This document shows, piece by piece, positions 1-40,635 of a stretch of 64,000 bases of DNA. The DNA comes from Escherichia coli. Lineage in GTDB: Bacteria; Pseudomonadota; Gammaproteobacteria; Enterobacterales; Enterobacteriaceae. Both the position numbers and the translations under genes were made by a program. The notes beneath the pieces are model-generated. The model searched no databases. It was not told where the DNA came from and saw nothing but the letters and a program-made list of their open reading frames with translations. Numbering within the stretch: the first letter of the stretch is position 1; every line of letters begins with the position of its first letter. The stretch lies in assembly GCF_013315695.1 (NCBI RefSeq), contig NZ_CP054353.1; one strand, 5' to 3'.

Positions 1-1041
1 AATGACATAGTAACCTCACTATACACAGATATAAAAGCACTGCAATTCTGGCTATTAATAGCAAAAATAGCAGTCAAATCAATATGAGGTAAAATTTTTT
101 GTTGATTTAATGGTTAAATAATAACTACAGTGTATTTTGCTGCTGAAGAAAGACAAAATGAATCTGTGTGTCCCCTCCTTCCCTTCGGAGCACATCCACT
201 ATTCAAATTTTACACAACCACGTACGAACAAAAAGCATCATCCCGGGTATTGCAGATACCGGTTTCCTGCCGGGAAGAATCATAAACAGAACACCGGGAA
301 TAACGCCTTCAGGAATCACCCCCCCCGATGAGAATGGATTAAAATAACACTTCTTCGACAAACACAAAAACAGCCTTCATTTTACATCATCATCCAGTTT
401 CAGTTAACCCCGGACGAGCGACAGTGTTTCAGTACAGGAATTAAAAGCCAGCTTTTGCTCAGTAAAACACACTCAACTAATAATATCTCAGCAGATATTA
501 TCCTGACCAGGACACCTCACATTACTGAATTCTCTTCCGACAGTATCACTGCACAAATAAAAAAGAACGGGATAAATATTCAGACCGGAAGAATGGTGTC
601 ACAAAAGCATTTAATCATTACGCATGACCAGGAAGGGAAACACTTAACCACATGGTATCAACAGATATCATTACGTGTGCACTCTTATAAAAAACACACA
701 GAAGAAGTAAGATAATTATAAACGTAAATTTAATATCTCCCACTGACATCTCCCCCACAATACACTAAAAAATACTCACAGCAGTAAACACAGACACACC
801 TGATAATCATACAGCCGATAAATATTTTCCCCTTTACGGAGAAATCAGCCTGCTGTTTAACAATAACGGCGTATTTTCATGGAAGGAGATCACCCAGTAA
901 CGGATAAGTCCTGATCTCCTTCATGTTAATACGCAACAATCCCATCGATTCAAAACAATTTCAGACAGATATTATCTCCGTGAATCCCCCGCCACCTTTC
1001 CGGTGCGCGGGGTTTTGTCTTTTTTCACCGGGAATACATGT

Positions 1042-8042: not shown

Positions 8043-8117
8043 CGGCTATTCTGCGCCTTTTACGCTTTATCACCTGATTTGTCAGTGTCATCGTCATGAC
8101 TCAGAGAGGTAAATACC

Positions 8118-8885: not shown

Positions 8886-8984
8886 ACGTCATTCATTTCA
8901 CCCATCAGGCCGCGTCTTCTCCGGGAGACGTGGCTTTTTCATTTATTACACCAGTAAATCTTAACCACCGATAAGGAGCAAATT

Positions 8985-9803
8985 ATGCGACTAGCCAGTC
9001 GTTTTGGTTATGCGAACCAGATACGCCGTGACCGTCCGCTGACACACGAAGAACTGATGCACTATGTGCCGGGGATTTTCGGGGAAGATAAACACACGTC
9101 CCGAAGCCAGAACTATACGTACATCCCCACCATCACCGTACTGGAAAGCCTGCAGCGGGAAGGCTTTCAGCCATTCTTCGCCTGCCAGACCCGCGTACGT
9201 GACCCGGACCGCCGGGAATACACCAAACACATGCTGCGTCTGCGGCGGGCCGGAGAGATAACCGGACAACATGTCCCTGAAATCATTCTGCTCAACTCCC
9301 ATGACGGTACCTCCAGCTACCAGATGCTGCCGGGTTACTTCAGGTTCGTCTGCCAGAACGGATGCGTCTGTGGTCAGTCTCTGGGGGAAGTGCGTGTTCC
9401 GCACCGGGGAAATGTGGTGGACAGAGTCATTGAAGGGGCTTACGAGGTGGTGGGCGTGTTTGACCGGATTGAGGAAAAGCGTGATGCCATGCAGTCGCTG
9501 ATTCTGCCGCCACCGGCACGCCAGGCGCTGGCACAGGCGGCACTGACTTACCGTTATGGTGACGAACATCAGCCCGTCACCACCGCCGACATTCTGACGC
9601 CACGACGCCGGGAGGATTACGGTAAGGACCTGTGGAGTGCTTATCAGACCATTCAGGAGAATATGCTTAAAGGCGGAATTTCAGGTCGCAGCGCTAAAGG
9701 AAAACGTATCCATACCCGTGCCATTCACAGCATTGACACTGACATTAAGCTCAACCGCGCATTGTGGGTGATGGCGGAAACCCTGCTGGAGAGCCTGCGC
9801 TGA
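8985..9803 (+). CDS. DUF932 family protein (YafZ/YfjQ-like)
   Basis: 272-aa ORF; size and order (before anti-restriction and RadC genes) match the CP4-type module. Confidence 0.7.
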   Translation: MRLASRFGYANQIRRDRPLTHEELMHYVPGIFGEDKHTSRSQNYTYIPTITVLESLQREGFQPFFACQTRVRDPDRREYTKHMLRLRRAGEITGQHVPEIILLNSHDGTSSYQMLPGYFRFVCQNGCVCGQSLGEVRVPHRGNVVDRVIEGAYEVVGVFDRIEEKRDAMQSLILPPPARQALAQAALTYRYGDEHQPVTTADILTPRRREDYGKDLWSAYQTIQENMLKGGISGRSAKGKRIHTRAIHSIDTDIKLNRALWVMAETLLESLR

Positions 9804-9857
9804 TTCAGCCATTACCCTGAAAACCACGCATTTATTTGTCCTTTAAGGAGTCATTTC

Positions 9858-10343
9858 ATGAAAACCATTTCACATAATTCCACCACATCTTCTGTTTCCG
9901 TAACCGCTGCATCAGGGAATGACCAGCCTCAGTTGGTTGCCACCCTCGTCCCTGATGAACAGCGCATCAGCTTCTGGCCGCAGCACTTTGGCCTCATTCC
10001 ACAGTGGGTGGCCCTGGAGCCCCGTGTCTTCGGCTGGATGGACCGTCTGTGTGAAGACTACTGCGGTGGTATCTGGAATCTGTACACCCTGAACAACGGC
10101 GGGGCATTTATGGCACCCGAACCGGATGACGATGATGACGAAACATGGGTACTGTTCAATGCCATGAACGGTAACCGCGCTGAAATGAGCCCGGAAGCCG
10201 CCGGCATTGCCGCCTGTCTGATGACGTACAGTCATCACGCCTGCCGTACGGAGTGTTATGCCATGACGGTTCATTATTACCGTCTGCGGGACTACGCCCT
10301 GCAGCATCCGGAATGCAACGCCATTATGCGCATCATCGACTGA
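9858..10343 (+). CDS. anti-restriction protein (ArdB/KlcA-like, YfjX/YafX family)
   Basis: 161-aa ORF with acidic stretch PEPDDDDDETW; conserved position upstream of RadC-like gene. Confidence 0.7.
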   Translation: MKTISHNSTTSSVSVTAASGNDQPQLVATLVPDEQRISFWPQHFGLIPQWVALEPRVFGWMDRLCEDYCGGIWNLYTLNNGGAFMAPEPDDDDDETWVLFNAMNGNRAEMSPEAAGIAACLMTYSHHACRTECYAMTVHYYRLRDYALQHPECNAIMRIID

Positions 10344-10358
10344 ATGGAGAGAAGTACA

Positions 10359-10835
10359 ATGCAACAGCTTTCCTTTCTGCCCGGAGAGATGACGCCCGGC
10401 GAGCGCAGCCTCATTCAACGGGCCCTGAAAACCCTGGACCGCCATCTTCATGAACCCGGCGTGGCCTTCACCTCCACCCGTGCGGCACGGGAATGGCTGA
10501 TTCTGAACATGGCGGGACTGGAGCGTGAAGAATTCCGGGTGCTGTATCTGAATAACCAGAATCAGCTGATTGCCGGTGAAACCCTCTTCACCGGCACCAT
10601 CAACCGCACGGAAGTCCATCCCCGGGAAGTGATTAAACGCGCCCTGTACCACAATGCCGCTGCCGTGGTGCTGGCACACAATCACCCGTCCGGTGAAGTC
10701 ACACCCAGCAAGGCAGACCGCCTTATCACGGAACGTCTGGTACAGGCACTGGGCCTGGTGGATATCCGGGTGCCGGACCATCTGATAGTCGGTGGCAGCC
10801 AGGTTTTCTCCTTTGCCGAACATGGTCTGCTTTAA
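10359..10835 (+). CDS. RadC-like JAB/JAMM domain protein (YeeS/YkfG/YfjY family)
   Basis: Translation contains HNHPSG JAMM motif (VLAHNHPSGEVTPS); start taken at MQQLSFLPGEM. Confidence 0.85.
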   Translation: MQQLSFLPGEMTPGERSLIQRALKTLDRHLHEPGVAFTSTRAAREWLILNMAGLEREEFRVLYLNNQNQLIAGETLFTGTINRTEVHPREVIKRALYHNAAAVVLAHNHPSGEVTPSKADRLITERLVQALGLVDIRVPDHLIVGGSQVFSFAEHGLL

Positions 10836-10897
10836 CCCGTCACAACCACATCACACCTGTTTTCACTTTTATCTTCTGTCTTCAGAGGTATCCCACT

Positions 10898-11119
10898 ATG
10901 AAAATCATCACCCGTGGCGAAGCCATGCGTATTCACCGTCAGCATCCGGCATCCCGTCTTTTTCCGTTCTGTACCGGCAAATACCGCTGGCACGGCAGTG
11001 CTGAAGCGTATACCGGTCGTGAAGTGCAGGATATTCCCGGTGTGCTGGCCGTGTTTGCAGAACGCCGTAAGGACAGTTTTGGTCCGTATGTCCGGCTGAT
11101 GAGCGTCACCCTGAACTGA
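10898..11119 (+). CDS. DUF987 protein (YeeT/YkfH-like)
   Basis: 73-aa ORF directly upstream of the antitoxin gene, conserved order. Confidence 0.65.
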   Translation: MKIITRGEAMRIHRQHPASRLFPFCTGKYRWHGSAEAYTGREVQDIPGVLAVFAERRKDSFGPYVRLMSVTLN

Positions 11120-11281
11120 TGTTCCGTCACCCGGAAAACGAGTACGACTGGCTGAGCTCAGACGCCGCTGTGGATGAGGCCCTACTCATCAACGAATACA
11201 CCTTCACCGAAGCCGGTCTGTGCACCGGCTGACCCGTCATCGTTAAACTATCATTCACCGATTTTCTGTGAGGATTTTATC

Positions 11282-11650
11282 GTGTCAGACACACTTTCCG
11301 GGACAACGCATCCCGATGACAATGACGACCATCCCTGGTGGGGACTACCCTGCACAGTGACGCCCTGTTTCGGCGCCCGTCTGGTGCAGGAGGGTAACCG
11401 GTTGCATTACCTTGCCGACCGTGCCGGTATCAGAGGCCGGTTCAGAGATGCGGATGCGTACCCTCTGGACCAGGCCTTTCCGCTGCTGATGAAACAACTG
11501 AAATTAATGCTCACCAGTGGTGAACTGAATCCCCGCCATCAGCATACCGTGACACTGTATGCGAAGGGGCTGACCTGTGAAGCAGACACCCTCGGCTCCT
11601 GTGGTTACGTTTATCTGGCTGTTTATCCGACACCTGAAACGAAAAAGTAA
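11282..11650 (+). CDS. CbeA/YeeU-family type IV antitoxin
   Basis: Product ...[48 protein letters not shown]...; probable GTG start at 11282 in frame with ORF 11174..11650. Confidence 0.8.
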
Positions 11651-11739
11651 ACCACCAGAATAACCTTCTGCTCCGGCCTGGTGTTTTCACCACGCCACTG
11701 TCCCATTTTTTATCTCTGCATATCAGGAAAATCTTCAGT

Positions 11740-12114
11740 ATGAAAACATTACCCGACACGCATGTACGGGAGGTATCGTGCTGCCCGTCTCCCGTCACCA
11801 TCTGGCAGACACTGCTCACCCGGTTACTGGACCAGCATTACAGCCTTACGCTGAATGACACACCGTTCGTGGATGAACGCGTGATTGAGCAGCATATTGA
11901 GGCAGGCATTTCACTGTGTGATGCAGTGAACTTTCTCGTGGAAAAATACGCACTGGTACGAACTGACCAGCCGGGATTCAGCGCAGGAGCCTCGTCGCAG
12001 TTAATCAACAGCATTGATATTCTCCGGGCTCGCCGGGCAACAGGCCTGATGACCCGCCACAACTACAGAACGGTGAACAATATCACCCTGGGTAAGTATC
12101 CGGAGGCGAAATGA
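11740..12114 (+). CDS. CbtA/YeeV-family type IV toxin (cytoskeleton-targeting)
   Basis: 124-aa [46 protein letters not shown]...; immediately downstream of antitoxin. Confidence 0.85.
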
Positions 12115-12602
12115 TGAAACTGGCCCTGACACTGGAAGCCGACAGTGTTAACGTACAGGCACTGAATATGGGGCGAATTGTCGTTGACATTGATGGTGTT
12201 AATCTCGCTGAACTGATTAACATGGTCTGCGATAACGGCTACTCCCTTCGTGTTGTTGATGAATCTGACCGGACCTCAGCAGACTGCACGCCACCATTTG
12301 TTGCCCTTACCGGCATACGCTGCAGTACCGCACATATCACGGAAACGGACAACGCCTGGCTGTACTCGCTGTCACACCAGACCAGTGACTTCGGTGAATC
12401 AGAATGGATTCATTTTACCGGTACCGGTTATCTGTTACGTACCGATGCGTGGTCATACCCGGTTCTGCGGCTTAAGCGCCTGGGGCTGTCAAAAACGTTC
12501 CGTCGTCTGGTCGTCACACTCATCCGGCGTTATGGTGTCAGTCTCATTCATCTGGATGCCAGTGCCGGATATCTGCCGGGTTTACCCACTTTCGACTGGT
12601 AA
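12111..12602 (+). CDS. YeeW-like protein
   Basis: 163-aa ORF overlapping the toxin stop (ATGA), conserved position after cbtA-like gene. Confidence 0.6.
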
Positions 12603-12618
12603 TCCGGAAATTCACAAC

Positions 12619-12795
12619 ATGAAATCATTAACCACGGAAACAGCGCTGGATATTCTGATTACGTGGCTGCAGGACAATATCGACTGCGAATCGGGAATTA
12701 TCTTCGACAACGATGAGGATAAAACAGGTTCGGCAGCACTGTTGCGCTGTATCGAACAGGCCAGGGAGGGTATCCGTACCCTGCGCCAACAGTAA
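12619..12795 (+). CDS. small island protein (YpjJ-like)
   Basis: 58-aa ORF MKSLTTETALDILITWLQDNIDCESGIIFDNDEDKTGSAALL...; ORF-track entry 12250..12795 is an upstream extension of this frame. Confidence 0.4.
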   Translation: MKSLTTETALDILITWLQDNIDCESGIIFDNDEDKTGSAALLRCIEQAREGIRTLRQQ

Positions 12796-13293
12796 CTTTT
12801 GCACCAGAACCAGTGAAGATCACTCACCCGATTTCACTTCCCTGACGTCAGCCTGAACACGGCTGGCGTTTTCATTTATAAACAGAAAGGAAAAATGATG
12901 ATGTCAGATACCACACTCTCCCGCCCGGAGGTGGTCAGCGGGCATACGGACGTTATCTATTCCACCTCAGTCTGCCACATTCTGGCTGTACGAAAGAGTA
13001 CACTGTTGCCAATCGACACAATTATCCGGCATCAAGTAAGCGATATCAGTTAACCGATATAGATGGGGAAGATGCTTTTATCCGGATTGGTTCTATCGCG
13101 ATGGTGCGAGTACCACTTGATGCAATGGAGCCTGTCGAGGAAGATGACGAGTAACAGAGCTCGGTATCTCAATCAGGACCTGATTGTCCTGGTTCGATGC
13201 CGAAAACCAGTGATTTTTCGTGTTGGTATCTGTGTTGGTATAGGATGGTGTTGTTTATTATTAACAATTTTAAATCATGAGGTTAAATCGCAT

Positions 13294-13316
13294 GTTTGAG
13301 TCCGGTCTTCGCACCA
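13294..13316 (+). repeat. tRNA-Leu (leuX-type) 3'-end-like sequence, probable island att remnant
   Basis: gtttgagtccggtcttcgcacca resembles the 3' end of a tRNA-Leu gene (GTTCGAGTCCGGCCTTCGGCACCA from memory); no upstream tRNA body. Confidence 0.4.
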
Positions 13317-13704
13317 CATCGTATGCAAATCGAGTCGCTCAAGGGCGGCTTTTTTTGTACCTGTGTTTTCACTACTTTGTTTGCATGTAACGCTGATAAT
13401 CTAAGAACTTCGGAAGCCCCATTTCCATCAATGATGTTCATTCATCATCCTGAAAATTAAGTAGATATAAAACTTCATTGCCTTGGTCTAATGGCACAGA
13501 AATAGATTGCATTTGGCGAGTGGCATTCTTAGTGCGTCGTTGTTTAGTCATGAAACGATGCGTAAAATTGCTGATTTTATGTGTCAAAGTCCCGCAACCG
13601 GAGATGGCCTTACTTCAATGATCAACCACTATTGACGTATCCTTTTAATATCTTGATTCAATTCAGCAGGTTATCGTCCAAAGTACAGCGAAGAGAGAGA
13701 AAAG

Positions 13705-16596
13705 ATGATTGGTACAACACCTTATCATGCGAAATATTTTGCGCATGAACTTTCCATTCTTCATTCAAACAATGGGGTGGACCGTCTGTCTCAATCGCTG
13801 TTTGATGCAAGCGTAGATCTAAACCCTCATCAAATTGAGGCGGCTCTTTTTGCTATCGAAAATCCGCTAAGCAAAGGTGTTGTGCTTGCCGATGAAGTTG
13901 GTTTGGGTAAAACCATTGAAGCTGGACTAGTGCTTTGCCAGTTGTGGGCTGAAAGAAAACGTAAACTGTTGATCATTTGTCCTGCTTCACTGCGTCGCCA
14001 ATGGGCGAGCGAGTTACAGGAAAAGTTCAATCTACCTTCTCAGGTGTTGGACGCGAAAATGTATAGCCAGCTTCAAAAAGAAGGGATCCATAATCCCTTA
14101 AATAATAAATCGATCACTATTATGTCATACCACTATGCTGCTCGGTTAGAAGAGAAATTGGTGGCTGAAATGTGGGATCTGGTTGTTATCGACGAAGCCC
14201 ATAAACTGCGTAATGCTCATCGAGAAAGCAACAAAATGGGGCAAGCGTTAAAGCGTGCGCTTGATGGGCGGAAGAAATTACTACTGACCGCAACGCCTTT
14301 ACAGAACTCGTTGATGGAACTGTATGGCATGTCGACGCTTATAGATGAACATACCTTCGGCGAAGTTAAAGCGTTCAGAAAGCAATATATGCAGGCAGAT
14401 AGCGATATTGCGGAGTTGAAGGGGCGATTGTCGCGTTTTATCAAACGAACTCTACGCAAGAATGTGCTGGAGTATATCAAGTATACAGAACGTAAAGCGA
14501 TCACTATTCCTTTCTATCCGAGCGAACAGGAGCAGGATCTTTATGAACGCGTACAAAAATTGCTTGAACGTGAGGATAGCTATGCCTTACCAAAACGACA
14601 CCGGCATCTGACGGGGCTTATACTCAGAAAACTACTTTCCTCAAGTACGAAAGCCGTATTGAATAACTTGCAGATCCTTAAGACTCGTTTAGAAAGGTTA
14701 AAGCTGGAAGGTATCGTTGAAGATGATATGGACATCATCCAACAGATCATAATGGATGATGATCTTGAAGATGACATCGTTGAAGATGCCGAATCAGTAG
14801 CGCCAGATACAGAGTGCAAATCTGTGGATTCAGATGCGCTTCAGGCAGAAATCAATGAGCTGGAATCACTCATTGTTAAAGCAGAACAGATTGGCACTGA
14901 TACCAAATCAAAAGAGTTGCTTTCTGGCCTGGAGCAAGGTTTTGCACAGCTTGCCGAAATGGGGGCTGCAAAAAAAGTCATCATCTTCACGGAGTCGATG
15001 CGAACTCAACAGTACCTTGCACATTTTCTGGAAAACAATGGCTACCAGGGAAAAGTAGTAACCTTTAGTGGCACAAACAATACACCGCAGGCAAACAAGA
15101 TCTACCAGCAATGGCGCGAGGAATATCAGGGATCTTCTCGTATTACCGGGTCGGCGCAAATTGATAAACGCTCGGCTTTGATCGACCACTTCAAAGATCA
15201 TGCTGAAATCATGATAGCTACAGAAGCTGCAGCTGAAGGGGTGAACCTGCAATTTTGTTCGCTACTGATCAATTACGATTTACCCTGGAACCCACAACGC
15301 ATTGAGCAGCGTATTGGACGTTGTCACCGATACGGGCAAAAATTTGATGTGGTTGTTATTAACTTCCTCAATCAGCGAAACCAGGCCGATCAACGCGTTC
15401 TTGAACTCTTAACTGAAAAGTTCAGCCTGTTTGATGGCGTGTTTGGCGCATCGGATAGTGTGCTTGGCAGCATAGAAAATGGTGTGGATTTTGAAAAAAG
15501 GATCCAGTCAATTTATGAGTCATGCCGTACCCCCGAGGAGATAGAGCTGGCTTTTGAAAGGTTGCAGAAAGAGCTGGAAGATGAAATCAATCTCAAGATG
15601 CAGAAGACGCAAGAACAGTTGCTTGAGCATTTTGATGAAGATATTCACGATATCCTTAAAATAAGGCTTGATGAAGCTCGGGAGCGCCTGGATAAAGTCG
15701 GTCGTTGGTTTTGGGCCGTGACCTGTCAGCAGCTCAAACAATATGCTGATTTTGATCATGAGCATCATCGTTTCACTTTACGTGAATCAGTCAATGAACT
15801 GCCTGTCGGGCAGTACCAGCTGTTGCGCAAAGATGGCAGGCAAAATAGTGCGTTACAAATGCAGGATCACCACAGTTTTGCATATCGGATCAATCATCCA
15901 CTGGGTGAGTACGTCATTGACGGAGCCAAAGCCCAGGAGACGAAAACAGCTGAAGTCATCTTCGATTACAGTAACCACACAACGAAAGTTTCGGTGGCTG
16001 AGCAGCTGAAAGGGCAATCAGGATGGTTAACACTAAATTTGCTTACTGTTGATGCGTTTAACAGGCAGCAATTTTTAGTCTTTACCGCGAAAACTGACAA
16101 CGGACGTGTGGTAGATGGTGAAGCTTGTAAACGTCTGTTCAACTTGTCTGCAATAACCAACGAAAAGCTGGATAATTCGGCAAGTTTAGATGCATTACCT
16201 GATGACTTGATCTTACTCAAGAACAGGCAAATTGACGCCAGGCTTGCAGAAGTTTTGGAGCAGAACAATGTCCTTTTTGAAGCGGAAAGAGATAAGCTGG
16301 AAAAATGGGCTGAAGACATGATCTTTGCGGCGGAAGAAGCATTACGCGATACCAAAATGCAAATCAAGTCGTTGAAGCGAGAAGCCAGGCTGGCGCAATC
16401 GATCGAAGAACAAAAGCAAAACCAGGAAAAGCTTAAGCTCCTGGAACGGCAGCAGAAGCGCCAACGTATGGAAATTTTTGACATTGAAGATGAGATCGCC
16501 GACAAGCGGGATGAACTCATCAGTGCCCTTGAAGAGCGGATGAAGCAAAAGACGGATATCACCGAGCTGTTTACCATCCGCTGGAAAGTTATTTAA
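13705..16596 (+). CDS. SNF2-family helicase-like ATPase with C-terminal coiled-coil region
   Basis: Motifs in translation: LADEVGLGKTIEAG (Walker A), VVIDEAHKLRN (DEAH-like), LLLTATPLQN, INYDLPWNPQRIEQRIGRCHRYGQ (motifs V-VI); C-terminal ~350 aa rich in E/K/Q heptad-like repeats. Strong RBS aagagagagaaaag before ATG. Confidence 0.85.
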   Translation: MIGTTPYHAKYFAHELSILHSNNGVDRLSQSLFDASVDLNPHQIEAALFAIENPLSKGVVLADEVGLGKTIEAGLVLCQLWAERKRKLLIICPASLRRQWASELQEKFNLPSQVLDAKMYSQLQKEGIHNPLNNKSITIMSYHYAARLEEKLVAEMWDLVVIDEAHKLRNAHRESNKMGQALKRALDGRKKLLLTATPLQNSLMELYGMSTLIDEHTFGEVKAFRKQYMQADSDIAELKGRLSRFIKRTLRKNVLEYIKYTERKAITIPFYPSEQEQDLYERVQKLLEREDSYALPKRHRHLTGLILRKLLSSSTKAVLNNLQILKTRLERLKLEGIVEDDMDIIQQIIMDDDLEDDIVEDAESVAPDTECKSVDSDALQAEINELESLIVKAEQIGTDTKSKELLSGLEQGFAQLAEMGAAKKVIIFTESMRTQQYLAHFLENNGYQGKVVTFSGTNNTPQANKIYQQWREEYQGSSRITGSAQIDKRSALIDHFKDHAEIMIATEAAAEGVNLQFCSLLINYDLPWNPQRIEQRIGRCHRYGQKFDVVVINFLNQRNQADQRVLELLTEKFSLFDGVFGASDSVLGSIENGVDFEKRIQSIYESCRTPEEIELAFERLQKELEDEINLKMQKTQEQLLEHFDEDIHDILKIRLDEARERLDKVGRWFWAVTCQQLKQYADFDHEHHRFTLRESVNELPVGQYQLLRKDGRQNSALQMQDHHSFAYRINHPLGEYVIDGAKAQETKTAEVIFDYSNHTTKVSVAEQLKGQSGWLTLNLLTVDAFNRQQFLVFTAKTDNGRVVDGEACKRLFNLSAITNEKLDNSASLDALPDDLILLKNRQIDARLAEVLEQNNVLFEAERDKLEKWAEDMIFAAEEALRDTKMQIKSLKREARLAQSIEEQKQNQEKLKLLERQQKRQRMEIFDIEDEIADKRDELISALEERMKQKTDITELFTIRWKVI

Positions 16597-16616
16597 TTGA
16601 TTTGAAAGAGAAAATA

Positions 16617-19600
16617 ATGAGTAAGTACAACGAATTAGTTAAGAAGCTAAAAGAAATTTTTCAGATTGATCGACCAGAACTGGATTTCGGTATTTATCGT
16701 ATTTTAAATGCGCGTGCTGATGAAATTAACGACTATCTGGATAATAAGCTGAAGGCCAAAATCCAGTCTGCGCTGGCGGATGCAGGAAATGCCAATAAAT
16801 CAGAATTAGAACATCAGTTGCAACTGACAATAAAAGCGGCAACTGATGCGGGTGTAGACCCTGCTGATAGCCCAAAAGTACAGGAGCTTAAAAAGCAACT
16901 GGCGGCTATGGCATCCGGAGCAAATGAGCATGAAAATGCAGTATTTTCCCATCTGCTCACTTTCTTTTCGCGTTATTATGACAACGGCGATTTTATCAGC
17001 AAACGCCGTTATAAAGGTAATACCTACGCCATCCCCTATTCTGGCGAAGAAGTGATGTTGCACTGGGCAAATAAGGACCAGTACTACATTAAAAGCGGTG
17101 AAAACTTCGCTAATTATTCGTTCAAATTAGAAGACGGTCGTAAAGTTAGCTTTAAATTGCTCGCAGCGGACACAGCAAAAGATAACCGTAAAGATAATGA
17201 ATTAGATCGCTGCTTTGTACTTATTGAGCCACATGTTCGTACCAAAATTGATGAAGAAGGCGATGAGTACGAACAAGAATATAAGCCAGTAGAAGTGGTG
17301 AAAAACTCATCTGTGGTGGACGGTAAACTCGTTGAAACAGAAGAGTTAGTTATTCACTTCGAATATAAGGCAATGAAAAAGGGCACTAAGCAGGATGCTT
17401 TAGTACAGTCCGCCATTTCAACAATTCTGGCAGATAAAACAGTTCAACAGCATTGGGTTGATCTTGCTAAACGTGCGCCAACAGAAAAGAATCCGTCACG
17501 TACAGAGTTGGAGCGTCACCTTACAACTTATACCCAGCGTAATACAGCAGACTACTTTATCCATAAAGATCTCGGTGGTTTTTTAACGAACGAACTGGAT
17601 TTTTATATTAAAAATGAAGTAATGAATCTCGATAATGTGCAAAATGCAGAAGTGTTTGCCAATGTTGAGAAACAATTGCGCATGATTCAATGTTTGCGTG
17701 CTGTTGCGCTGGAACTCATTACATTTTTGGCACAAATTGAGAATTTCCAGAAAAAACTTTGGACTAAGAAGAAGTTTGTTGTTGGGCATGAGTATCTTGT
17801 GTCACTTTCAAATCTATCAGATTCGCTTTACGATAAAATTCGAACTAATAAAGGGCAACATGATGAATGGGTTGAGCTTTATGCTGTAAATAAAATTCCT
17901 GGATATTCATTTCCATTCACAAAAGATTTCTTGTATAAAAATAATGGTATGATATTGGATACAAAATATTTTGATCCGTCATTTAAGGAGGTTTTTTTAA
18001 CAGAGTTAACTAATGTTGACGATAATTTAGATGGTCTCTTAATTAATTCAGATAATTATCAGGCCATTAATTTTTTGGAGGGGCGGTATAAGGACTCAAT
18101 AGACTGTCTTTATATTGATCCTCCGTATAATACTGCGGCTTCAGAAATTTTATATAAAAATGAATATAAGCACAGCAGCTGGAATTCATTAATGTATGAA
18201 AGGATATCTAAAAGCTATAATTTACTGAAAATTTCTGCAATTAATTTTACCGCGATAGATCATGCGGAATTATATAATCTTGGTAAGATCAAGGATGAAA
18301 TCTATGGAGAACAAAACAGGATAGCAGTTGTTACTGTTCAGCATAATCCTAAAGGGCGTAACCAGGCAAAGTTCTTTTCTGAAAATACTGAGTATATGTT
18401 AGTATATGCTAAAGATTTTAATGCTGCTAACTTTAACTCTGTAGCTATCGATGAGGATGTGCTTTTAACATTCACAGAACAAGATAATATAGGCCGTTAT
18501 CGTTGGGAAAACTTTATTCGTGCAAGAACAAGTTGGTCCAGAGCAAATAGACCAAATAACTGGTATCCTTTATACGTCTCTTCCGACTTAAAATCAATTT
18601 CTGTTGATTATGTAGATGGGTATATCGAAGTATATCCTACAACTAAACAGGGGGATTTTTCGTGGAAAAATATTAAAGAATCATTTGTTGAATTAAATAA
18701 AGATAATTATTTTAAAGCTGTAAATGAAAATGGAGAAATAAAAATCTATCATAAATATAGGGAGCAGCAAGTCTTTAAAAATCTTTGGATTGATAAGAAA
18801 TATCAGTCTGAGTTTAATGGTACAAATTTACTGAAAAACATACTTGGACAATCACTATTTGATTATCCGAAATCATTATATGCAGTACAAGATGCAATCA
18901 AAATGTCGACACCACACAATGGTATTGTATTGGACTATTTTGCAGGTTCAGGGACAACTTCTCATGCAGTAATAAACCTTAATAATTCAGATAATCTCTG
19001 TATGAAATTTATCAATGTTGAAATGGGTACTCATTTCAATACAGTAGTTATTCCAAGATTGAAGAAAATTGGATATTCAAACTTATGGAAACAATGTAAA
19101 CCAATCGGTAAACCTCAAAAAATGACTATCAAGTATTTGAAACTTGAAAGTTATGAGGATGCTCTTAATAATATACAATTACGAAGTTATTCATTGCATC
19201 AGGATATTTTCGACATTTTGGTGGAAGATGTAAAATCAGAGTTTGCTCTTAAATATATTTTTGAAAATGAATTATTTTATTCACTATTAAATACTGATAA
19301 TTTCAAAAAACCATTTAACTACGAAATGGATATTGCGACGGATTCCGCCGGTGCCACTGAGCGTAAAAACATCGATTTAGTTGAAACTTTCAATTATCTC
19401 ATTGGCTTACATGTGAAATCCATCGAATCTGATATCGCACGTGGCTATGTGCGTATTGAAGGAACGCTGCCAACAGGCGAGCGTACCCTTATTCTGTGGC
19501 GCGATTGCGACAAGATCGGTTATGAAGAATTGAATAAATATGCCAACCGATTTGATTTGTATGCAAAAGAAAACACGTTCGACGTTATCTACATCAATGG

Positions 19601-19721
19601 CGATCATAACTTACCTACCGCCTTTACCGTTGATGAAGAAGACGGCGAGATTGTTCGTAGCCTGAAAATTCGCCAGATCGAACCTGAATTCTTGAACCTG
19701 ATGTTTGCGGAGGAGGTTTAA
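16617..19721 (+). CDS. Mod-like amino-methyltransferase (beta-class, DPPY) with ~500-aa N-terminal domain of unknown function
   Basis: ORF 16602..19721; preferred start ATG 16617 (RBS gaaagag). DCLYIDPPYN (motif IV) precedes VLDYFAGSGTTSHAV (motif I) by ~270 aa, the order seen in Type III Mod enzymes. Stop overlaps SD of next gene. Confidence 0.85.
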   Translation: MSKYNELVKKLKEIFQIDRPELDFGIYRILNARADEINDYLDNKLKAKIQSALADAGNANKSELEHQLQLTIKAATDAGVDPADSPKVQELKKQLAAMASGANEHENAVFSHLLTFFSRYYDNGDFISKRRYKGNTYAIPYSGEEVMLHWANKDQYYIKSGENFANYSFKLEDGRKVSFKLLAADTAKDNRKDNELDRCFVLIEPHVRTKIDEEGDEYEQEYKPVEVVKNSSVVDGKLVETEELVIHFEYKAMKKGTKQDALVQSAISTILADKTVQQHWVDLAKRAPTEKNPSRTELERHLTTYTQRNTADYFIHKDLGGFLTNELDFYIKNEVMNLDNVQNAEVFANVEKQLRMIQCLRAVALELITFLAQIENFQKKLWTKKKFVVGHEYLVSLSNLSDSLYDKIRTNKGQHDEWVELYAVNKIPGYSFPFTKDFLYKNNGMILDTKYFDPSFKEVFLTELTNVDDNLDGLLINSDNYQAINFLEGRYKDSIDCLYIDPPYNTAASEILYKNEYKHSSWNSLMYERISKSYNLLKISAINFTAIDHAELYNLGKIKDEIYGEQNRIAVVTVQHNPKGRNQAKFFSENTEYMLVYAKDFNAANFNSVAIDEDVLLTFTEQDNIGRYRWENFIRARTSWSRANRPNNWYPLYVSSDLKSISVDYVDGYIEVYPTTKQGDFSWKNIKESFVELNKDNYFKAVNENGEIKIYHKYREQQVFKNLWIDKKYQSEFNGTNLLKNILGQSLFDYPKSLYAVQDAIKMSTPHNGIVLDYFAGSGTTSHAVINLNNSDNLCMKFINVEMGTHFNTVVIPRLKKIGYSNLWKQCKPIGKPQKMTIKYLKLESYEDALNNIQLRSYSLHQDIFDILVEDVKSEFALKYIFENELFYSLLNTDNFKKPFNYEMDIATDSAGATERKNIDLVETFNYLIGLHVKSIESDIARGYVRIEGTLPTGERTLILWRDCDKIGYEELNKYANRFDLYAKENTFDVIYINGDHNLPTAFTVDEEDGEIVRSLKIRQIEPEFLNLMFAEEV

Positions 19722-19723
19722 GA

Positions 19724-22700
19724 ATGGCTAAAAAACCGACCACCGGTAAAGCAGTTAAAAAAGAGACTAACAGCAAGCTGAGCTTTCATAAACAACTGGT
19801 TTTAAACCGCTTTATGTTCCATTTTTTCAAAGATGGCACATTGCAAGGTTTGAAGAATCGGTTAGGCGAGGATCGCTTTGAAGGCATCCATGAAGATGGC
19901 CAAAGCTTGTTCTTCCATGAGCTGAGTAACTATTTATTCGAGGTCGATCTAATCGATCTCGATGAACTGCGTCGTTACGATCTCAATATCGTGCAGCACT
20001 GGCAGCAGATAACCGAGCACCGTAATCGTAAAGAAGACACTGTGCTGAACATGAAATATTTTCAGTACTTGTCGCTTCTGTTTACCGAGATCTACCTGGA
20101 CTGGTACTTCAATCGTAAACAGCAATTACTCGATGGGCTAAATAACGAGCTGGCAGCATACAATGCTGAAAATGATAAAACAGCAAAAGACCGGGCTAAT
20201 CAGTTCAAATCATATGTTCTGGATGATTTGAATAAATTGGCATACTGGAACGCTACTGGTTCTGGTAAGACACTGCTATTACATGTCAATATTTTGCAAT
20301 ATTTACATTATTTCCAGAACGGTAATAGCCATCATTATCCGGATAAAATCATCCTGCTTACGCCGGATGAACGCCTGTCGAAGCAACATTTAGATGAACT
20401 GGAAAACTCAGGGTTTACCCAATACCAGTTGTTCGATAAGAGTAAATCAGCGCCCTTCAAAGGCACGATTGAAGTCATTGATATCAATAAACTTGATGAT
20501 AAAATGGGCGACAAAACTGTTGCCGTTGAGGCATTTGAAGGCAACAATCTGGTCCTGATTGATGAAGGGCATAAAGGCACAGGAAGTGCTGCTGGTGCCT
20601 GGATGCGCCGTCGTGACAAGTTAACTCGTGACGGATTTGCGTTTGAATATTCAGCAACTTTTGGCCAGGCAGTAGCCGGTGGCAATAATGTGGAGGCAGT
20701 TGAAACAGAAATTCAGAAGAAAAAAGCAAAGCTGCTTTTTGAAACAACTGCCTTAGGCAAATTGAGCGAAGAAGAGTTAGCACAAATAGCATTAACCAGC
20801 GAAGAACAACGTGATGCGCGTATTCAGGCGACGCGAGAAGTCTATGGGAAATCGATTCTGTTCGATTACTCCTATAAATTCTTCTATGAGGATGGTTATG
20901 GCAAAGAATCACTGATTCTTAACCTTAATCCGCAAGATGATAAAAAAGATGAGCGTCGGTATGAGTATTTTACCGCGTGTTTGCTCAGCTTTTATCAGCA
21001 ACAATATTTATTCAATAAAAATAAAGAAAAATTAAATGAATTTAATATCGAAAAACCGCTGTGGGTTTTTGTCGGTAATTCTGTAAGTGGTGAAGATTCA
21101 GACATTCACGCAGTATTGCGTTTTTTAGCATGGTTTTTAAACCACGAAACGCAGGCAAAAGCGTGGATTAACGATCTCATTAAAAATAAAGCGCGAATCC
21201 TCGATACCAAAGAGCGTAACATTTTTGAAAATCGCTTTACTGCACTAATGAACGCTCCGGAAGATATCTACGCAGATATTCTTTCTCGCTTGTTTAACAC
21301 CACTCACTCTGGTCAGCGACTGCGAGTTCTGAATTTAATAGGCAGTAAAGGTGAACTGGCATTACAGGTTGGTGAGGCCGAACCGTTTGGCCTTATCAAT
21401 ATTGGTGATGCACCGTCTCTTTACAAAATGTGTGAAGAGGATACGACATTTGATTATCAGAGAGATGATTTTGCAAAGTCGCTCTTTCATACGTTAAATG
21501 ACAAAGACTCGCGACTACATATTTTGATCGGCTCGCGAAAATTTACTGAAGGCTGGAGCAGTTGGCGCGTCTCAACGATGGGATTGCTCAATATGGGCCG
21601 TGGAGAAGGTTCACAGATCATTCAGTTATTTGGCCGTGGCGTTCGCCTTAAAGGTCGCAATTATTCTTTGAAACGCAGTACACCCGGTGAGCGTCCGAAA
21701 GGGTTGCATCTGGAAAAATTAGAGACACTGAATGTATTCGGTGTACGTGCCGATTACATGGCAACCTTTAAACAATACCTGGAAGATGAAGGGATTACGC
21801 CAAGTGACGAGATCCTTGAGCTGAATTTTGAAACTCGGCCAAATATGCCAGCAACCAGGCTTAAAACACTTAAGCTCAAAGATGGTTATAAAGATAATCA
21901 AAGACTCGGCTTTAAACGTGTCTATTTTCCCGAATTGTATGAAGTTCCTGCTGATTTTCAGGGGAAAATTAAGCAGCCGCATATTAAGCTGGACCTATAC
22001 CCGAAACTTGAGTCGATTGATACCAGCAGAAAAGGGGAAAATACTCCGGTTAACGTGCGTAATGAAGCGAAGTTAGATTATAAAATCATTAGTGCGTTTG
22101 ATTTTGATCGGCTTTATCTCGCCATTCAGAATTATAAACTACAACGCGGCTGGTCAAATTTACGTGTGGATAAACAACGTTTGATCGACTTTTGTACCGG
22201 TAAGACAAAGATCGGAAATAGTTGGTATACCCTTTTGATTCCAGCTTCAGAACTTGAGATTAAGCAATATGCAGATATTGCTAAGCAGGAAGATATTATG
22301 CTTCGTCTGCTGACTGATTATACTGATCGCTTTTACAACACATTGAAAAATGCTTATGAAGGTCAGTTTTATGAAGTCACGCAGGTGAAAGAAGATGATC
22401 CTGGTATGATCAAAATGTACCATTTCGAGATCGAAGAAACTGATGATGGGTTGGCATATGCCAGTCGGCTGGAACAATTACAACAATTGGTCATCGACGG
22501 CGAAATCGGTAAAGCAAAATCCTGGAGTGCATCCGGGATGGTTGCTATTACCTTTGATAAACATCTCTATTATCCACTTCTTTCGATTGAAAAAAATGCC
22601 AACATACCGCTAAAAATGCGACCGGCAGCACTGGGTGCATCAAGTGAGATTACTTTTGTCCATGATCTTCAGTCTTTTGTTGATTCGACAAAAGGGCAGA

Positions 22701-32103: not shown

Positions 32104-32829
32104 GTGAGTAATAAAAACGTCAATGTAAGGAAATCGCAGGAAATAACATTCTGCTTGCTGGCAGGTATCCTGATGTTCATGGCAATGATGGTTGCCGGAC
32201 GCGCTGAAGCGGGAGTGGCCTTAGGTGCGACTCGCGTAATTTATCCAGCAGGGCAAAAACAAGTGCAACTTGCCGTGACAAATAATGATGAAAATAGCAC
32301 CTATTTGATTCAATCATGGGTAGAAAATGCTGATGGTGTAAAGGATGGCCGTTTTATCGTGACGCCACCTCTGTTTGCGATGAAGGGAAAAAAAGAGAAT
32401 ACCTTGCGTATTCTTGATGCAACAAATAACCAATTGCCACAGGATCGGGAAAGTTTATTCTGGATGAATGTTAAAGCGATTCCGTCAATGGATAAATCAA
32501 AATTGACTGAGAATACGCTACAGCTCGCAATTATCAGCCGCATTAAACTGTACTATCGTCCGGCTAAATTAGCGTTGCCACCCGATCAGGCCGCAGAAAA
32601 ATTAAGATTTCGTCGTAGCGCGAATTCTCTGACGCTGATTAACCCGACACCCTATTACCTGACGGTAACAGAGTTGAATGCCGGAACCCGGGTTCTTGAA
32701 AATGCATTGGTGCCTCCAATGGGCGAAAGCGCGGTTAAATTGCCTTCTGATGCAGGAAGCAATATTACTTACCGAACAATAAATGATTATGGCGCACTTA
32801 CCCCCAAAATGACGGGCGTAATGGAATAA
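32104..32829 (+). CDS. fimC: periplasmic fimbrial chaperone
   Basis: 241-aa product with signal peptide; between fimI and fimD. Confidence 0.92.
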   Translation: MSNKNVNVRKSQEITFCLLAGILMFMAMMVAGRAEAGVALGATRVIYPAGQKQVQLAVTNNDENSTYLIQSWVENADGVKDGRFIVTPPLFAMKGKKENTLRILDATNNQLPQDRESLFWMNVKAIPSMDKSKLTENTLQLAIISRIKLYYRPAKLALPPDQAAEKLRFRRSANSLTLINPTPYYLTVTELNAGTRVLENALVPPMGESAVKLPSDAGSNITYRTINDYGALTPKMTGVME

Positions 32830-32892
32830 CGCAGGGGGATTTTCGCCTGAATAAAAAGAATTGACTGCCGGGTGATTTAAACCGGAGGAATA

Positions 32893-35529
32893 ATGTCATA
32901 TCTGAATTTAAGACTTTACCAGCGAAACACACAGTGCTTGCATATTCGTAAGCATCGTTTGGCTGGTTTTTTTGTCCGGCTCTTTGTTGCCTGTGCTTTT
33001 GCCGCACAGGCACCTTTGTCATCTGCCGAACTCTATTTTAACCCGCGTTTTTTAGCGGATGATCCCCAGGCTGTGGCTGATTTATCGCGTTTTGAGAATG
33101 GGCAAGAATTACCGCCAGGGACGTATCGTGTCGATATCTATTTGAATAATGGTTATATGGCAACGCGTGATGTCTCATTTAATACGGGCGACAGCGAACA
33201 AGGGATTGTTCCCTGCCTGACACGCGCGCAACTTGCCAGTATGGGGCTGAATACGGCTTCTGTCTCCGGTATGAATCTGCTGGCGGATGATGCCTGCGTG
33301 CCATTAACCTCAATGATCCATGACGCTACTGCGCATTTAGATGTTGGTCAGCAGCGACTCAACCTGACGATCCCTCAGGCATTTATGAGTAATCGCGCGC
33401 GTGGTTATATTCCTCCTGAGTTATGGGATCCCGGTATTAATGCCGGATTGCTCAATTATAATTTCAGCGGAAATAGTGTACAGAATCGAATTGGGGGTAA
33501 CAGCCATTATGCATATTTAAACCTACAGAGTGGGTTAAATATTGGTGCGTGGCGTTTATGCGACAATACCACCTGGAGTTATAACAGTAGCGACAGTTCA
33601 TCAGGTAGCAAAAATAAATGGCAGCATATCAATACCTGGCTTGAGCGAGACATAATTCCGTTACGTTCCCGGCTGACGCTGGGTGATGGTTATACTCAGG
33701 GCGATATTTTCGATGGTATTAACTTTCGCGGCGCACAATTGGCCTCAGATGACAATATGTTACCCGATAGCCAAAGAGGATTTGCCCCGGTGATCCACGG
33801 TATTGCTCATGGTACTGCACAGGTCACTATTAAACAAAATGGGTATGACATTTATAATAGTACGGTGCCACCGGGGCCTTTTACCATCAACGATATCTAT
33901 GCCGCAGGTAATAGTGGTGACTTGCAGGTAACGATTAAAGAGGCTGACGGCAGTACGCAGATTTTTACCGTACCCTATTCGTCAGTCCCGCTTTTGCAGC
34001 GTGAAGGGCATACACGTTATTCCATTACGGCAGGAGAATACCGTAGTGGAAATGCGCAGCAGGAAAAACCCCGCTTTTTCCAGAGTACATTACTCCACGG
34101 CCTTCCGGCTGGCTGGACAATATATGGTGGAACGCAACTGGCGGATCGTTATCGTGCGTTTAATTTCGGTATCGGGAAAAATATGGGGGCACTGGGCGCT
34201 CTGTCTGTGGATATGACGCAGGCTAATTCCACACTTCCCGATGACAGTCAGCATGACGGACAATCGGTGCGTTTTCTTTATAACAAATCGCTCAATGAGT
34301 CAGGCACGAATATTCAGTTAGTGGGTTACCGTTATTCGACCAGTGGGTATTTTAATTTCGCTGATACAACATACAGTCGAATGAATGGCTACAACATCGA
34401 AACACAGGATGGAGTTATTCAGGTTAAGCCGAAATTCACCGACTATTACAATCTCGCTTATAACAAACGCGGGAAATTACAACTCACCGTTACTCAGCAA
34501 CTCGGGCGCACATCAACACTGTATTTGAGTGGTAGCCATCAAACTTATTGGGGAACGAGTAATGTCGATGAGCAATTCCAGGCTGGATTAAATACTGCGT
34601 TCGAAGATATTAACTGGACGCTCAGCTATAGCCTGACGAAAAACGCCTGGCAAAAAGGACGGGATCAGATGTTAGCGCTTAACGTCAATATTCCTTTCAG
34701 CCACTGGCTGCGTTCTGACAGTAAATCTCAGTGGCGACATGCCAGTGCCAGCTACAGCATGTCACACGATCTCAACGGTCGGATGACCAATCTGGCCGGT
34801 ATATACGGTACGTTGCTGGAAGACAACGACCTCAGCTATAGCGTGCAAACCGGTTATGCCGGGGGAGGCGATGGAAATAGCGGAAGTACAGGCTACGCCA
34901 CGCTGAATTATCGCGGTGGTTACGGCAATGCCAATATCGGTTACAGCCATAGCGATGATATTAAGCAGCTCTATTACGGAGTCAGCGGTGGGGTACTGGC
35001 TCATGCCAATGGCGTAACGCTGGGGCAGCCGTTAAACGATACGGTGGTGCTTGTTAAAGCGCCTGGCGCAAAAGATGCAAAAGTCGAAAACCAGACAGGA
35101 GTGCGTACCGACTGGCGGGGTTATGCCGTGCTGCCTTATGCCACTGAATATCGGGAAAACAGAGTGGCGCTGGATACCAATACCCTGGCTGATAACGTCG
35201 ATTTAGATAATGCGGTCGCTAACGTTGTTCCCACCCGTGGGGCGATCGTGCGAGCAGAGTTTAAAGCGCGCGTTGGGATAAAACTGCTCATGACGCTAAC
35301 CCACAATAATAAGCCGCTGCTGTTTGGGGCGATGGTGACATCAGAGAGTAGCCAGAGTAGCGGCATTGTTGCGGATAATGGTCAGGTTTACCTCAGCGGA
35401 ATGCCTTTAGCGGGAAAAGTGCAGGTGAAATGGGGAGAAGAGGAAAATGCTCACTGTGTCGCCAATTATCAACTGCCACCAGAGAGTCAGCAGCAGTTAT
35501 TAACCCAGCTATCAGCTGAATGTCGTTAA
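32893..35529 (+). CDS. fimD: fimbrial outer-membrane usher
   Basis: 878-aa usher-size ORF. Confidence 0.92.
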   Translation: MSYLNLRLYQRNTQCLHIRKHRLAGFFVRLFVACAFAAQAPLSSAELYFNPRFLADDPQAVADLSRFENGQELPPGTYRVDIYLNNGYMATRDVSFNTGDSEQGIVPCLTRAQLASMGLNTASVSGMNLLADDACVPLTSMIHDATAHLDVGQQRLNLTIPQAFMSNRARGYIPPELWDPGINAGLLNYNFSGNSVQNRIGGNSHYAYLNLQSGLNIGAWRLCDNTTWSYNSSDSSSGSKNKWQHINTWLERDIIPLRSRLTLGDGYTQGDIFDGINFRGAQLASDDNMLPDSQRGFAPVIHGIAHGTAQVTIKQNGYDIYNSTVPPGPFTINDIYAAGNSGDLQVTIKEADGSTQIFTVPYSSVPLLQREGHTRYSITAGEYRSGNAQQEKPRFFQSTLLHGLPAGWTIYGGTQLADRYRAFNFGIGKNMGALGALSVDMTQANSTLPDDSQHDGQSVRFLYNKSLNESGTNIQLVGYRYSTSGYFNFADTTYSRMNGYNIETQDGVIQVKPKFTDYYNLAYNKRGKLQLTVTQQLGRTSTLYLSGSHQTYWGTSNVDEQFQAGLNTAFEDINWTLSYSLTKNAWQKGRDQMLALNVNIPFSHWLRSDSKSQWRHASASYSMSHDLNGRMTNLAGIYGTLLEDNDLSYSVQTGYAGGGDGNSGSTGYATLNYRGGYGNANIGYSHSDDIKQLYYGVSGGVLAHANGVTLGQPLNDTVVLVKAPGAKDAKVENQTGVRTDWRGYAVLPYATEYRENRVALDTNTLADNVDLDNAVANVVPTRGAIVRAEFKARVGIKLLMTLTHNNKPLLFGAMVTSESSQSSGIVADNGQVYLSGMPLAGKVQVKWGEEENAHCVANYQLPPESQQQLLTQLSAECR

Positions 35530-35538
35530 GGGGGCGTG

Positions 35539-36069
35539 ATGAGAAACAAACCTTTTTATCTTCTTTGCGCTTTTTTGTGGCTGGCGGTAAGTCACGCTTT
35601 GGCTGCGGATAGCACGATTACTATCCGCGGCTATGTCAGAGATAATGGCTGTAGTGTGGCCGCTGAATCAACCAATTTTACTGTTGATCTGATGGAAAAC
35701 GCGGCGAAGCAATTTAACAACATTGGCGCGACGACTCCTGTCGTTCCATTTCGTATTTTGCTGTCACCCTGTGGTAACGCCGTTTCTGCCGTAAAGGTTG
35801 GGTTTACTGGCGTTGCAGATAGCCACAATGCCAACCTGCTTGCACTTGAAAATACGGTGTCAGCGGCTGCGGGACTGGGAATACAGCTTCTGAATGAGCA
35901 ACAAAATCAGATACCCCTTAATGCCCCATCGTCCGCGATTTCGTGGACGACCCTGACGCCGGGTAAACCAAATACGCTGAATTTTTACGCCCGGCTAATG
36001 GCGACACAGGTGCCTGTCACTGCGGGGCATATCAATGCCACGGCTACCTTCACTCTTGAATATCAGTAA
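35539..36069 (+). CDS. fimF: type 1 fimbrial minor subunit FimF
   Basis: 176-aa pilin-like product [22 protein letters not shown]...TLEYQ. Confidence 0.9.
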
Positions 36070-36081
36070 CTGGAGATGCTC

Positions 36082-36585
36082 ATGAAATGGCGCAAACGTG
36101 GGTATTTATTGGCGGCAATATTGGCGCTCGCAAGTGCGACGATACAGGCAGCCGATGTCACCATCACGGTGAACGGTAAGGTCGTCGCTAAACCGTGCAC
36201 GGTTTCCACCACCAATGCCACGGTTGATCTCGGCGATCTTTATTCTTTCAGTCTTATGTCTGCCGGGGCGGCATCGGCCTGGCATGATGTTGCGCTTGAG
36301 TTGACTAATTGTCCGGTGGGAACGTCGAGGGTCACTGCCAGCTTCAGCGGGGCAGCCGACAGTACCGGATATTATAAAAATCAGGGGGCCGCGCAAAACA
36401 TCCAGTTAGAGCTACAGGATGACAGTGGCAACACATTGAATACTGGCGCAACCAAAACAGTTCAGGTGGATGATTCCTCACAATCAGCGCACTTCCCGTT
36501 ACAGGTCAGAGCATTGACGGTAAATGGCGGAGCCACTCAGGGAACCATTCAGGCAGTGATTAGCATCACCTATACCTACAGCTGA
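36082..36585 (+). CDS. fimG: type 1 fimbrial minor subunit FimG
   Basis: 167-aa product MKWRKRGYLLAAILALASATIQA... Confidence 0.9.
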   Translation: MKWRKRGYLLAAILALASATIQAADVTITVNGKVVAKPCTVSTTNATVDLGDLYSFSLMSAGAASAWHDVALELTNCPVGTSRVTASFSGAADSTGYYKNQGAAQNIQLELQDDSGNTLNTGATKTVQVDDSSQSAHFPLQVRALTVNGGATQGTIQAVISITYTYS

Positions 36586-36604
36586 ACCCGAAGAGATGAT
36601 TGTA

Positions 36605-37507: not shown

Positions 37508-37579
37508 AAAAATTACAGCACATTGCTAATGCTGGTACCTGAGGCGCTACGCTATCAGACCTACAAAACCTGCACGTTA

Positions 37580-37622
37580 GCCCTTTGTAGGCCAGATAAG
37601 ACGCGTCAGCGTCGCATCTGGC
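37580..37622. repeat. REP-like extragenic palindrome
   Basis: gtaggccagataagacgcgtcagcgtcgcatctggc between fimH and gntP, REP-family pattern. Confidence 0.55.
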
Positions 37623-37654
37623 ATAAACAAAGCGTACTTTGCCGACAATCCGAA

Positions 37655-37689
37655 CAGAGCCTGCCATTGGCAGGCTCTGGTGTTCTTTT
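37655..37689. terminator. bidirectional rho-independent terminator between convergent fimH and gntP
   Basis: Hairpin cagagcctgcc-attgg-caggctctg followed by T-run gtgttctttta. Confidence 0.6.
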
Positions 37690-40555: not shown

Positions 40556-40635
40556 TATCCACCGGCATGGCTGCGCGCCGTGCCGGTTCCTTCTTCCTTG
40601 CCGTCACTCTTTGAAGACGGATTCTGGAGTTTACG

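Follow-up and report, generated by a model that had tools for sequence, protein, structure and literature searches.

An ArdB-family anti-restriction gene at the attR-proximal end of a leuX island in Escherichia coli, and the Type III-like operon beside it

Introduction

The stretch of Escherichia coli DNA analysed here (64,000 nucleotides of contig NZ_CP054353.1; hereafter the window) carries an anti-restriction gene and, a few kilobases further along the same strand, three genes that resemble a restriction-modification system. This raises the question of whether the two belong to one mobile element, which would evade restriction on entering a new host and then install restriction of its own, or whether they merely lie side by side. 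A preliminary description of this DNA, made from its letters, had placed both in a single island. On the basis of the comparisons given below, we regard a different explanation as very probable, namely that the gene is an allele of the island clade of ardB acting against Type I restriction and standing in a module at the attR end of the island, and that the operon is a separate islet in the chromosomal flank.

Results and Discussion

The open reading frame encodes a protein of the ArdB/KlcA family

The open reading frame at 9858..10343 (+) is intact from its ATG start to its TGA stop, and a Shine-Dalgarno sequence, AAGGAG (9845..9850, +), can be seen in the sequence 7 nt 5' of the ATG. The 161-aa product (18.2 kDa) is acidic, with a pI of 4.74, and ends in ...MRIID, with Asp161 as its last residue; it is thus a small acidic protein with the conserved C-terminal Asp, as expected of a family member. 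It matches the PF03230 profile 'Antirestrict' over its whole length (1-92 of 92; 127.4 bits against a cutoff of 25, E=2.4e-37), and among PDB sequences it matches 2WJ9 (E=3.9e-99) and, over residues 22-161, KlcA of plasmid pBP136 (2KMG, E=1.1e-20). The family match is far above chance. The globular fold seen in 2WJ9 and 2KMG can be assigned by sequence alone, through a core identity of 97.1% to the crystallised 2WJ9 chain. A location on a mobile or formerly mobile element, likewise expected of the family, is also found: the gene lies in a leuX-integrated island bounded by att sites, with a tyrosine integrase in a relative. The antisense open reading frame overlapping ardB (9912..10823, 303 aa) gave no family match.

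The closest known protein is ArdB_CFT, the product of ORF14 of PAI II of the uropathogenic E. coli CFT073 (NP_752219), which Serfiotis-Mitsa et al. (PMC2836571) characterised along with five other family members; the native residues of 2WJ9 match its 157-aa sequence. The two proteins belong to the same clade and length class, come from tRNA-linked islands and share the DDDDDE loop and the C-terminal IID. They are identical at 133 of 137 positions (97.1%) over residues 25-161, the core substitutions being L30I, A52T, D66N and N157S (window residue first). They differ in the N-terminal tail, which is 4 aa longer in the window protein, and in location, since the window island lies at leuX and the CFT073 copy in PAI II. 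The assignment to ArdB/KlcA in the preliminary description was therefore right, and the identity to ArdB_CFT strengthens it.

In K-12, YfjX/LfgA (CP4-57) and YafX (CP4-6) show 75% and 73% core identity to the window protein, and their genes likewise lie directly upstream of those for a RadC/JAB protein, a DUF987 protein and a CbeA/CbtA-type pair. Both are 152 aa long, with shorter N-terminal tails and an acidic loop shorter by 2 residues. KlcA of pBP136 (2KMG) and ArdB of pKM101 and R64 share with the window protein the Pfam family, the C-terminal Asp, the small size and the acidity, and they act against Type I restriction with little or no anti-modification activity (PMC2836571, PMC12429846). 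However, these plasmid proteins are only about 28-39% identical to it, are about 141-142 aa long, lack the N-terminal tail and are mostly encoded on conjugative plasmids. ArdA and Ocr have the same Type I target and the same role on mobile elements, but their fold is unrelated: they are DNA mimics which bind the methylase core and block modification as well, whereas ArdB/KlcA proteins are globular, do not mimic DNA and spare modification (PMC2836571, PMC10149784). The RefSeq accessions of ArdB and of the proteins encoded by the three operon genes retrieved no paper in a literature search. The gene itself is already known, as a further allele of the ArdB_CFT/YfjX kind.

The ardB core is under strong purifying selection

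We aligned ten ardB alleles, from the window, seven other strains, yfjX and yafX. All ten are intact and end in ...IID, and all indels are multiples of three. By the Nei-Gojobori method the dN/dS of the core is 0.077, which indicates strong purifying selection, while the first 27 codons (9858..9938, +) form a hypervariable N-terminal tail with a dN/dS of 0.65, relaxed constraint and in-frame indels of 6-21 nt between alleles. KlcA has no counterpart of this tail, its alignment beginning at residue 22 of the window protein.

The open reading frame was matched in 4488 of 5426 complete E. coli genomes (83%), at 12502 places or about 3 copies in each, only 7 of these places being plasmid-borne. 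In 4419 of the 4488 genomes at least one place covers at least 80% of the frame, and among 40 evenly spaced hits from 4496 ardB records only the weakest (28% of the query) turned out, when inspected, to be a truncated fragment lying beside transposase remnants. The preliminary description had named wide degradation in relatives as evidence that would speak against its reading; with every aligned allele intact and the core so constrained, this is not what we find. Homologues from plasmids amount to at least 5000 records, of which 3885 of the best 5000 lie on conjugative plasmids, and since they are only about 28-39% identical, the chromosomal-island proteins form a clade of their own.

ardB is the second gene of an eight-gene module

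The module is conserved, and all of its eight genes are co-oriented. A terminator-like hairpin (8907..8936, +; 13-bp stem with 7 GC pairs, followed by a T run) closes a DUF905 gene 5' of the module, which then starts with a DUF932 gene of the YafZ/YfjQ-like type (8985..9803, +; PF06067, E=5.1e-51, and annotation in the relative). After ardB comes a gene for a RadC-like JAB protease, a paralogue of K-12 YfjY/LfgB (10359..10835, +; PF04002, E=1.5e-44), separated from the ardB stop by 15 nt, or by 0 nt should translation begin at the alternative ATG (10344). There follow a DUF987 gene (YeeT/YpjJ-like; 10898..11119, +; PF06174, E=1.5e-40), a type IV antitoxin gene of the CbeA/YeeU family (11282..11650, +; PF06154, E=8.2e-53, start taken from the annotation of the relative), a type IV toxin gene of the CbtA family (11740..12114, +; PF06755, E=2.5e-60), a DUF5983 (YeeW-like) gene (12111..12602, +; PF25638 and PF19419) and, at the module end, a DUF957 gene (12619..12795, +), known from the RefSeq annotation of the relative; its product had no Pfam match at E<=0.01. 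A second terminator-like hairpin, found by hairpin scan, closes the module (12844..12870, +). A promoter scan of 7900-13800 found no sigma-70-like site on the + strand.

The 4.8-kb module was matched in 5150 of the 5426 complete genomes, at a median of 3 places per genome. In some other copies cbtA and the DUF5983, DUF957 and DUF905 genes are pseudogenes, while ardB and radC stay intact. The window is chromosomal, and its closest match is NZ_OZ547117 (99.5% over 8900..13700, 100% over the operon); its annotation, mapped to the window, places genes for a GTPase, Ag43, YeeR, IrmA and DUF905 before the DUF932 gene. A literature search linking DUF932, RadC and anti-restriction to plasmid leading regions yielded nothing useful.

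All 24 differences between the window and this relative over 8900..13700 are confined to three patches, 9194..9299, 10190..10318 and 10532..10664, which fall in the DUF932 gene, the 3' third of ardB and radC, and 11000..28000 is identical in the two. As 8 of the 9 changes in the ardB patch are synonymous and most match the allele of strain CP196316, the pattern suggests gene conversion between paralogous island copies. Elsewhere, positions 1..1000 of the window (GC 0.39) show 236 mismatches to the relative in an ungapped comparison, against only 57 in the next 32 kb, and the likely cause is an indel, or replacement of a segment, upstream of the GTPase gene.

ArdB probably acts against Type I restriction

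The function of ArdB_CFT has been assayed in vivo. The ardB_CFT gene raised the plating of unmodified lambda 710-fold on EcoKI, 54-fold on EcoAI, 199-fold on EcoR124I and 1174-fold on StySBLI hosts (PMC2836571, Table 2), with anti-modification values of at most 6 (PMC2836571). YafX and YfjX also relieved Type I restriction in vivo and behaved similarly (PMC2836571). Expressed in a cell, near-identical ArdB proteins thus lower restriction by Type I enzymes of families IA to ID by a factor of 10 to 1000 or more and have little effect on methylation. Since ArdB_CFT is 97% identical to the window protein in the core, the assay against Type I systems proposed in the preliminary description has in essence been published already for a near-identical protein.

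As for the mechanism, the family does not act by DNA mimicry, it neither bound nor inhibited EcoKI in vitro, and its action is independent of ClpXP (PMC2836571). BlihIA was inhibited in vitro by a family member at 30-fold molar excess, an effect lost on deletion of the C-terminal Asp, and the corresponding residue of ArdB(R64), D141, is required for activity (PMC12429846). Non-specific DNA binding has been reported for the family, and a block of HsdR translocation has been proposed (PMC10149784). According to this current proposal, the protein would bind DNA non-specifically, for which it requires its C-terminal Asp, present in the window protein as D161, and would thereby hinder translocation or cleavage by HsdR. 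When island DNA enters a new host unmethylated, early expression of ArdB would hold off Type I cleavage. The host methylase would meanwhile mark the island DNA, which would become protected because ArdB spares modification.

In an established host, expression of the ArdB operon would be held low. The EcoKI host carrying only the vector still restricted lambda in the published assays (PMC2836571). Any chromosomal copies of ardB in that host were therefore not silencing restriction. We assume that this host was a K-12 derivative carrying yafX and yfjX. No transfer genes of the island were seen within the window and the island integrase of the closest relative is a pseudogene, thus the role at entry may be historical for this particular copy.

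A rather unlikely alternative is that the resident ArdB-RadC operon has been domesticated and serves host stress physiology, anti-restriction being no longer the role under selection. The paralogous genes yfjX(lfgA)-yfjY(lfgB)-ypjJ-yfjZ-ypjF of K-12 form a single operon, which MqsA represses and oxidative stress induces; LfgB, the paralogue of the RadC-like protease, is reported to degrade the antitoxin MqsA (PMC10846083). The strong purifying selection on ardB despite a pseudogene integrase in the closest relative, together with the retention of about three copies per genome, would also fit this alternative. However, the phenotype of the lfgA deletion could not be complemented and was ascribed to polarity on lfgB (PMC10846083), so no host function has been shown for the ArdB paralogue itself. 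Moreover, YfjX and YafX are themselves active in anti-restriction (PMC2836571), and patchy gene conversion with recent spread could equally keep the reading frames intact.

The island ends at attR, upstream of the operon

A degenerate direct repeat of the 3' end of the leuX tRNA-Leu gene, GTTTGAGTCCGGTCTTCGCACCA, lies at 13294..13316 (+) and represents attR. It corresponds to the last ~23 nt of leuX, from which it departs by one substitution and one deletion inside the core. Because of this 1-nt deletion a gapless search of the window for the full leuX 3' end found no match, and the site was located by a pattern search with a shorter core followed by alignment. Past attR, alignment and the hairpin scan place a copy of the leuX terminator in the chromosomal flank (13332..13351, +). 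NZ_CP116241 shows the same region without the island: here, 390 bp separate an intact and unoccupied leuX from the same SNF2 gene downstream, and the DNA from attR to the SNF2 start codon in the window, including the leuX terminator, is colinear with the DNA that follows leuX in this genome.

In NZ_OZ547117 the att core is found also at leuX and between a P4-like satellite and the integrase of a large island, which gives the order leuX, satellite, att, island of ~77 kb, attR, operon. The satellite (28629..40882 of the extracted locus, upstream of the window) carries int, psu, delta, sid, an icd-like gene and the alpha primase-helicase; the large island contains grp, fec, virK/capU and Ag43, with the ArdB module at its far end. 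The integrase of the large island is a pseudogene with an internal stop, and this larger member of the tandem array has probably lost the capacity for excision by itself. The island also carries many IS elements and pseudogenes. By these comparisons we place the ArdB module at the attR-proximal (right) end of a leuX-integrated pathogenicity island.

ArdB and the operon appear to be separate units at a tRNA hotspot

The preliminary description held that one island carries both ArdB and the operon, about 4 kb apart. The distance was roughly right, as the operon starts at 13705, 3.36 kb past the ardB stop, but the claim of a common island is not borne out, since attR lies between the two. As the att sites bound the island before the operon, the operon would stay behind in the chromosome if attL and attR recombined and the island were excised.

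The idea that the operon and the anti-restriction gene travel in one island, first evading and then installing restriction, could draw on their distance and common orientation, on the exact island-end/attR/SNF2 junction shared by 101 of 5426 genomes, and on the intact catalytic motifs of the operon. Besides the position of attR, the distribution of the two units argues against it. The operon directly follows an empty leuX in 36 of 5426 genomes, and in NCTC8623 only a P4-like satellite stands at leuX before it. Conversely, roughly 600 records have the same island end at leuX and lack the operon, a figure estimated from the rank positions of hits with 51% coverage. The prevalence of ardB and of the operon is ~24-fold apart (4488 versus 190 of 5426 genomes), their GC contents differ (~55% for the ArdB module, 32-45% for the operon), and two terminators intervene. 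We consider travel in a single island very unlikely. ArdB and the operon are instead best read, from their sequence context, as separate units abutting at the leuX hotspot, so that their pairing would be incidental.

The neighbouring operon is Type III-like with an additional SNF2 gene

The first gene of the operon, outside the island (13705..16596, +), encodes a SNF2 helicase of 963 aa with intact GLGKT, DEAH and QRxGR motifs. Its best PADLOC and NCBIfam matches are to DrmD, but the score of 667 bits is below the equivalog cutoff of 950.

The second gene (16617..19721, +) encodes a Type III-like Mod methyltransferase of 1034 aa, which matches PF01555 (E=8.3e-25), the PADLOC model MTase_III (1551 bits) and the EcoP15I Mod chain 4ZCF_A (E=3e-25). 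The motif DPPY at residue 501 precedes FAGSG at 775, the DPPY-before-FxGxG order of the beta-class N6-adenine methyltransferases and of EcoP15I-type Mod proteins. Compared with the 644-aa EcoP15I Mod chain, the protein has conserved N- and C-terminal extensions of ~390 and ~145 aa. In three alleles, that of the window and two others, these N-terminal ~390 aa and C-terminal ~145 aa are near-invariant, while the central ~500 aa (residues ~390-890), which contain the methylase and target-recognition region, are conserved at motif level only. The variation of the centre looks like cassette-style swapping of specificity.

The third gene (19724..23104, +) encodes a Type III Res-like helicase-nuclease of 1126 aa, which matches PF04851 (E=5.4e-8) and, over its full length, the PADLOC model REase_III (2306 bits). 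It combines SF2 helicase motifs (GSGKT at 179, DEGH at 280) with a C-terminal PD-(D/E)xK nuclease (PD at 1023, DPK at 1043). A comparison with PDB sequences gave no match to any solved structure. The operon was present in 190 of 5426 complete E. coli genomes, and in most of these just 84% of it was matched at megablast level.

The operon departs from the canonical two-gene mod-res arrangement in having three genes, including the upstream SNF2 helicase. We classify it, by its motifs and profile matches, as Type III-like with an additional SNF2 gene. Two other assignments were tried and rejected. Class 1 DISARM does not fit, as the SNF2 protein falls below the DrmD cutoff and the third protein has no match to DrmA, DUF1998 (DrmB) or PLD (DrmC). 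ARMADA systems consist of a BrxHII-like helicase, a PglX-like methylase and a YprA-family (DUF1998) helicase, with a GajB-like helicase added in type II (bioRxiv 2025.09.15.676423, 2025.09.22.677730); neither type I nor type II fits, as Mod is Type III-like and not PglX-like, and there is no DUF1998/YprA match and no fourth, UvrD-like gene. The SNF2/Mod/Res triad is also absent from the domain-centric defence-discovery paper.

Further remnants lie between the operon and a truncated nanS. A gene for a phosphorothioate-DNA-dependent restriction endonuclease (23765..24186, -) is frameshifted and truncated in the window and intact in NZ_CP116241, and an HNH endonuclease remnant is found at 24300..24404 (+). 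The gap between leuX and nanS is a small graveyard, and a hotspot, of defence genes. Beyond it, a premature stop (...TRLI*DYLG...) interrupts fimB (28752..29354), which encodes the recombinase of the type 1 fimbrial switch, at codon 162. The closest relative, NZ_OZ547117, shares this stop, and the annotation of that genome gives fimE as intact.

ArdB is not expected to act on the operon

In published work, Type I systems of both E. coli and Bacillus were inhibited by ArdB(R64), and the Type III system EcoPI and BREX were unaffected (PMC10149784). If this specificity can be carried over from a distant homologue, the operon would not be an expected target of the window ArdB, and the independent distributions of the two point the same way. 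It is still conceivable that ArdB modulates its SNF2/Mod/Res neighbour, for example by delaying restriction while the genome is being methylated, and what speaks for this is proximity and common orientation only. Beyond the inactivity of ArdB(R64) on EcoPI and BREX, the operon occurs without an adjacent ardB in at least 37 genomes and ardB without the operon in more than 4000, so we find such modulation extremely unlikely.

That ardB is a decaying, functionless relic, as the IS elements and pseudogenes of the island, the pseudogene integrase of the relative and the decay of cbtA and the DUF5983, DUF957 and DUF905 genes in some copies might suggest, is scarcely credible, given the core dN/dS of 0.077, the exclusively in-frame indels, the retained C-terminal Asp and ribosome-binding site, and the 4419 of 4488 matched genomes in which at least 80% of the frame is covered.

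Implications

As a discovery the gene carries little weight, being a near-copy of a crystallised and assayed protein and occurring in 83% of complete E. coli genomes. The consequence is rather one of correction: to annotate or model the SNF2/Type III-like operon together with the ArdB island, as a single cargo of anti-defence plus defence, would be a mistake. More generally, where two units lie close together in a tRNA hotspot, this says little about co-mobility as long as their att sites have not been located.

A further reading, quite unlikely in our judgement, concerns the ~3 chromosomal copies of ArdB per genome. Rather than being left over from the entry of islands, these may constitute a stress-inducible switch under host control, co-transcribed with the RadC/JAB and CbeA/CbtA genes, which on derepression would transiently silence the Type I restriction of the cell in trans. 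Such a switch would explain the strong purifying selection on ardB in islands with decayed integrases. If this reading were true, the switch would open the cell to foreign DNA, or would shield the chromosome from damage at times of disturbed Type I specificity or methylation.
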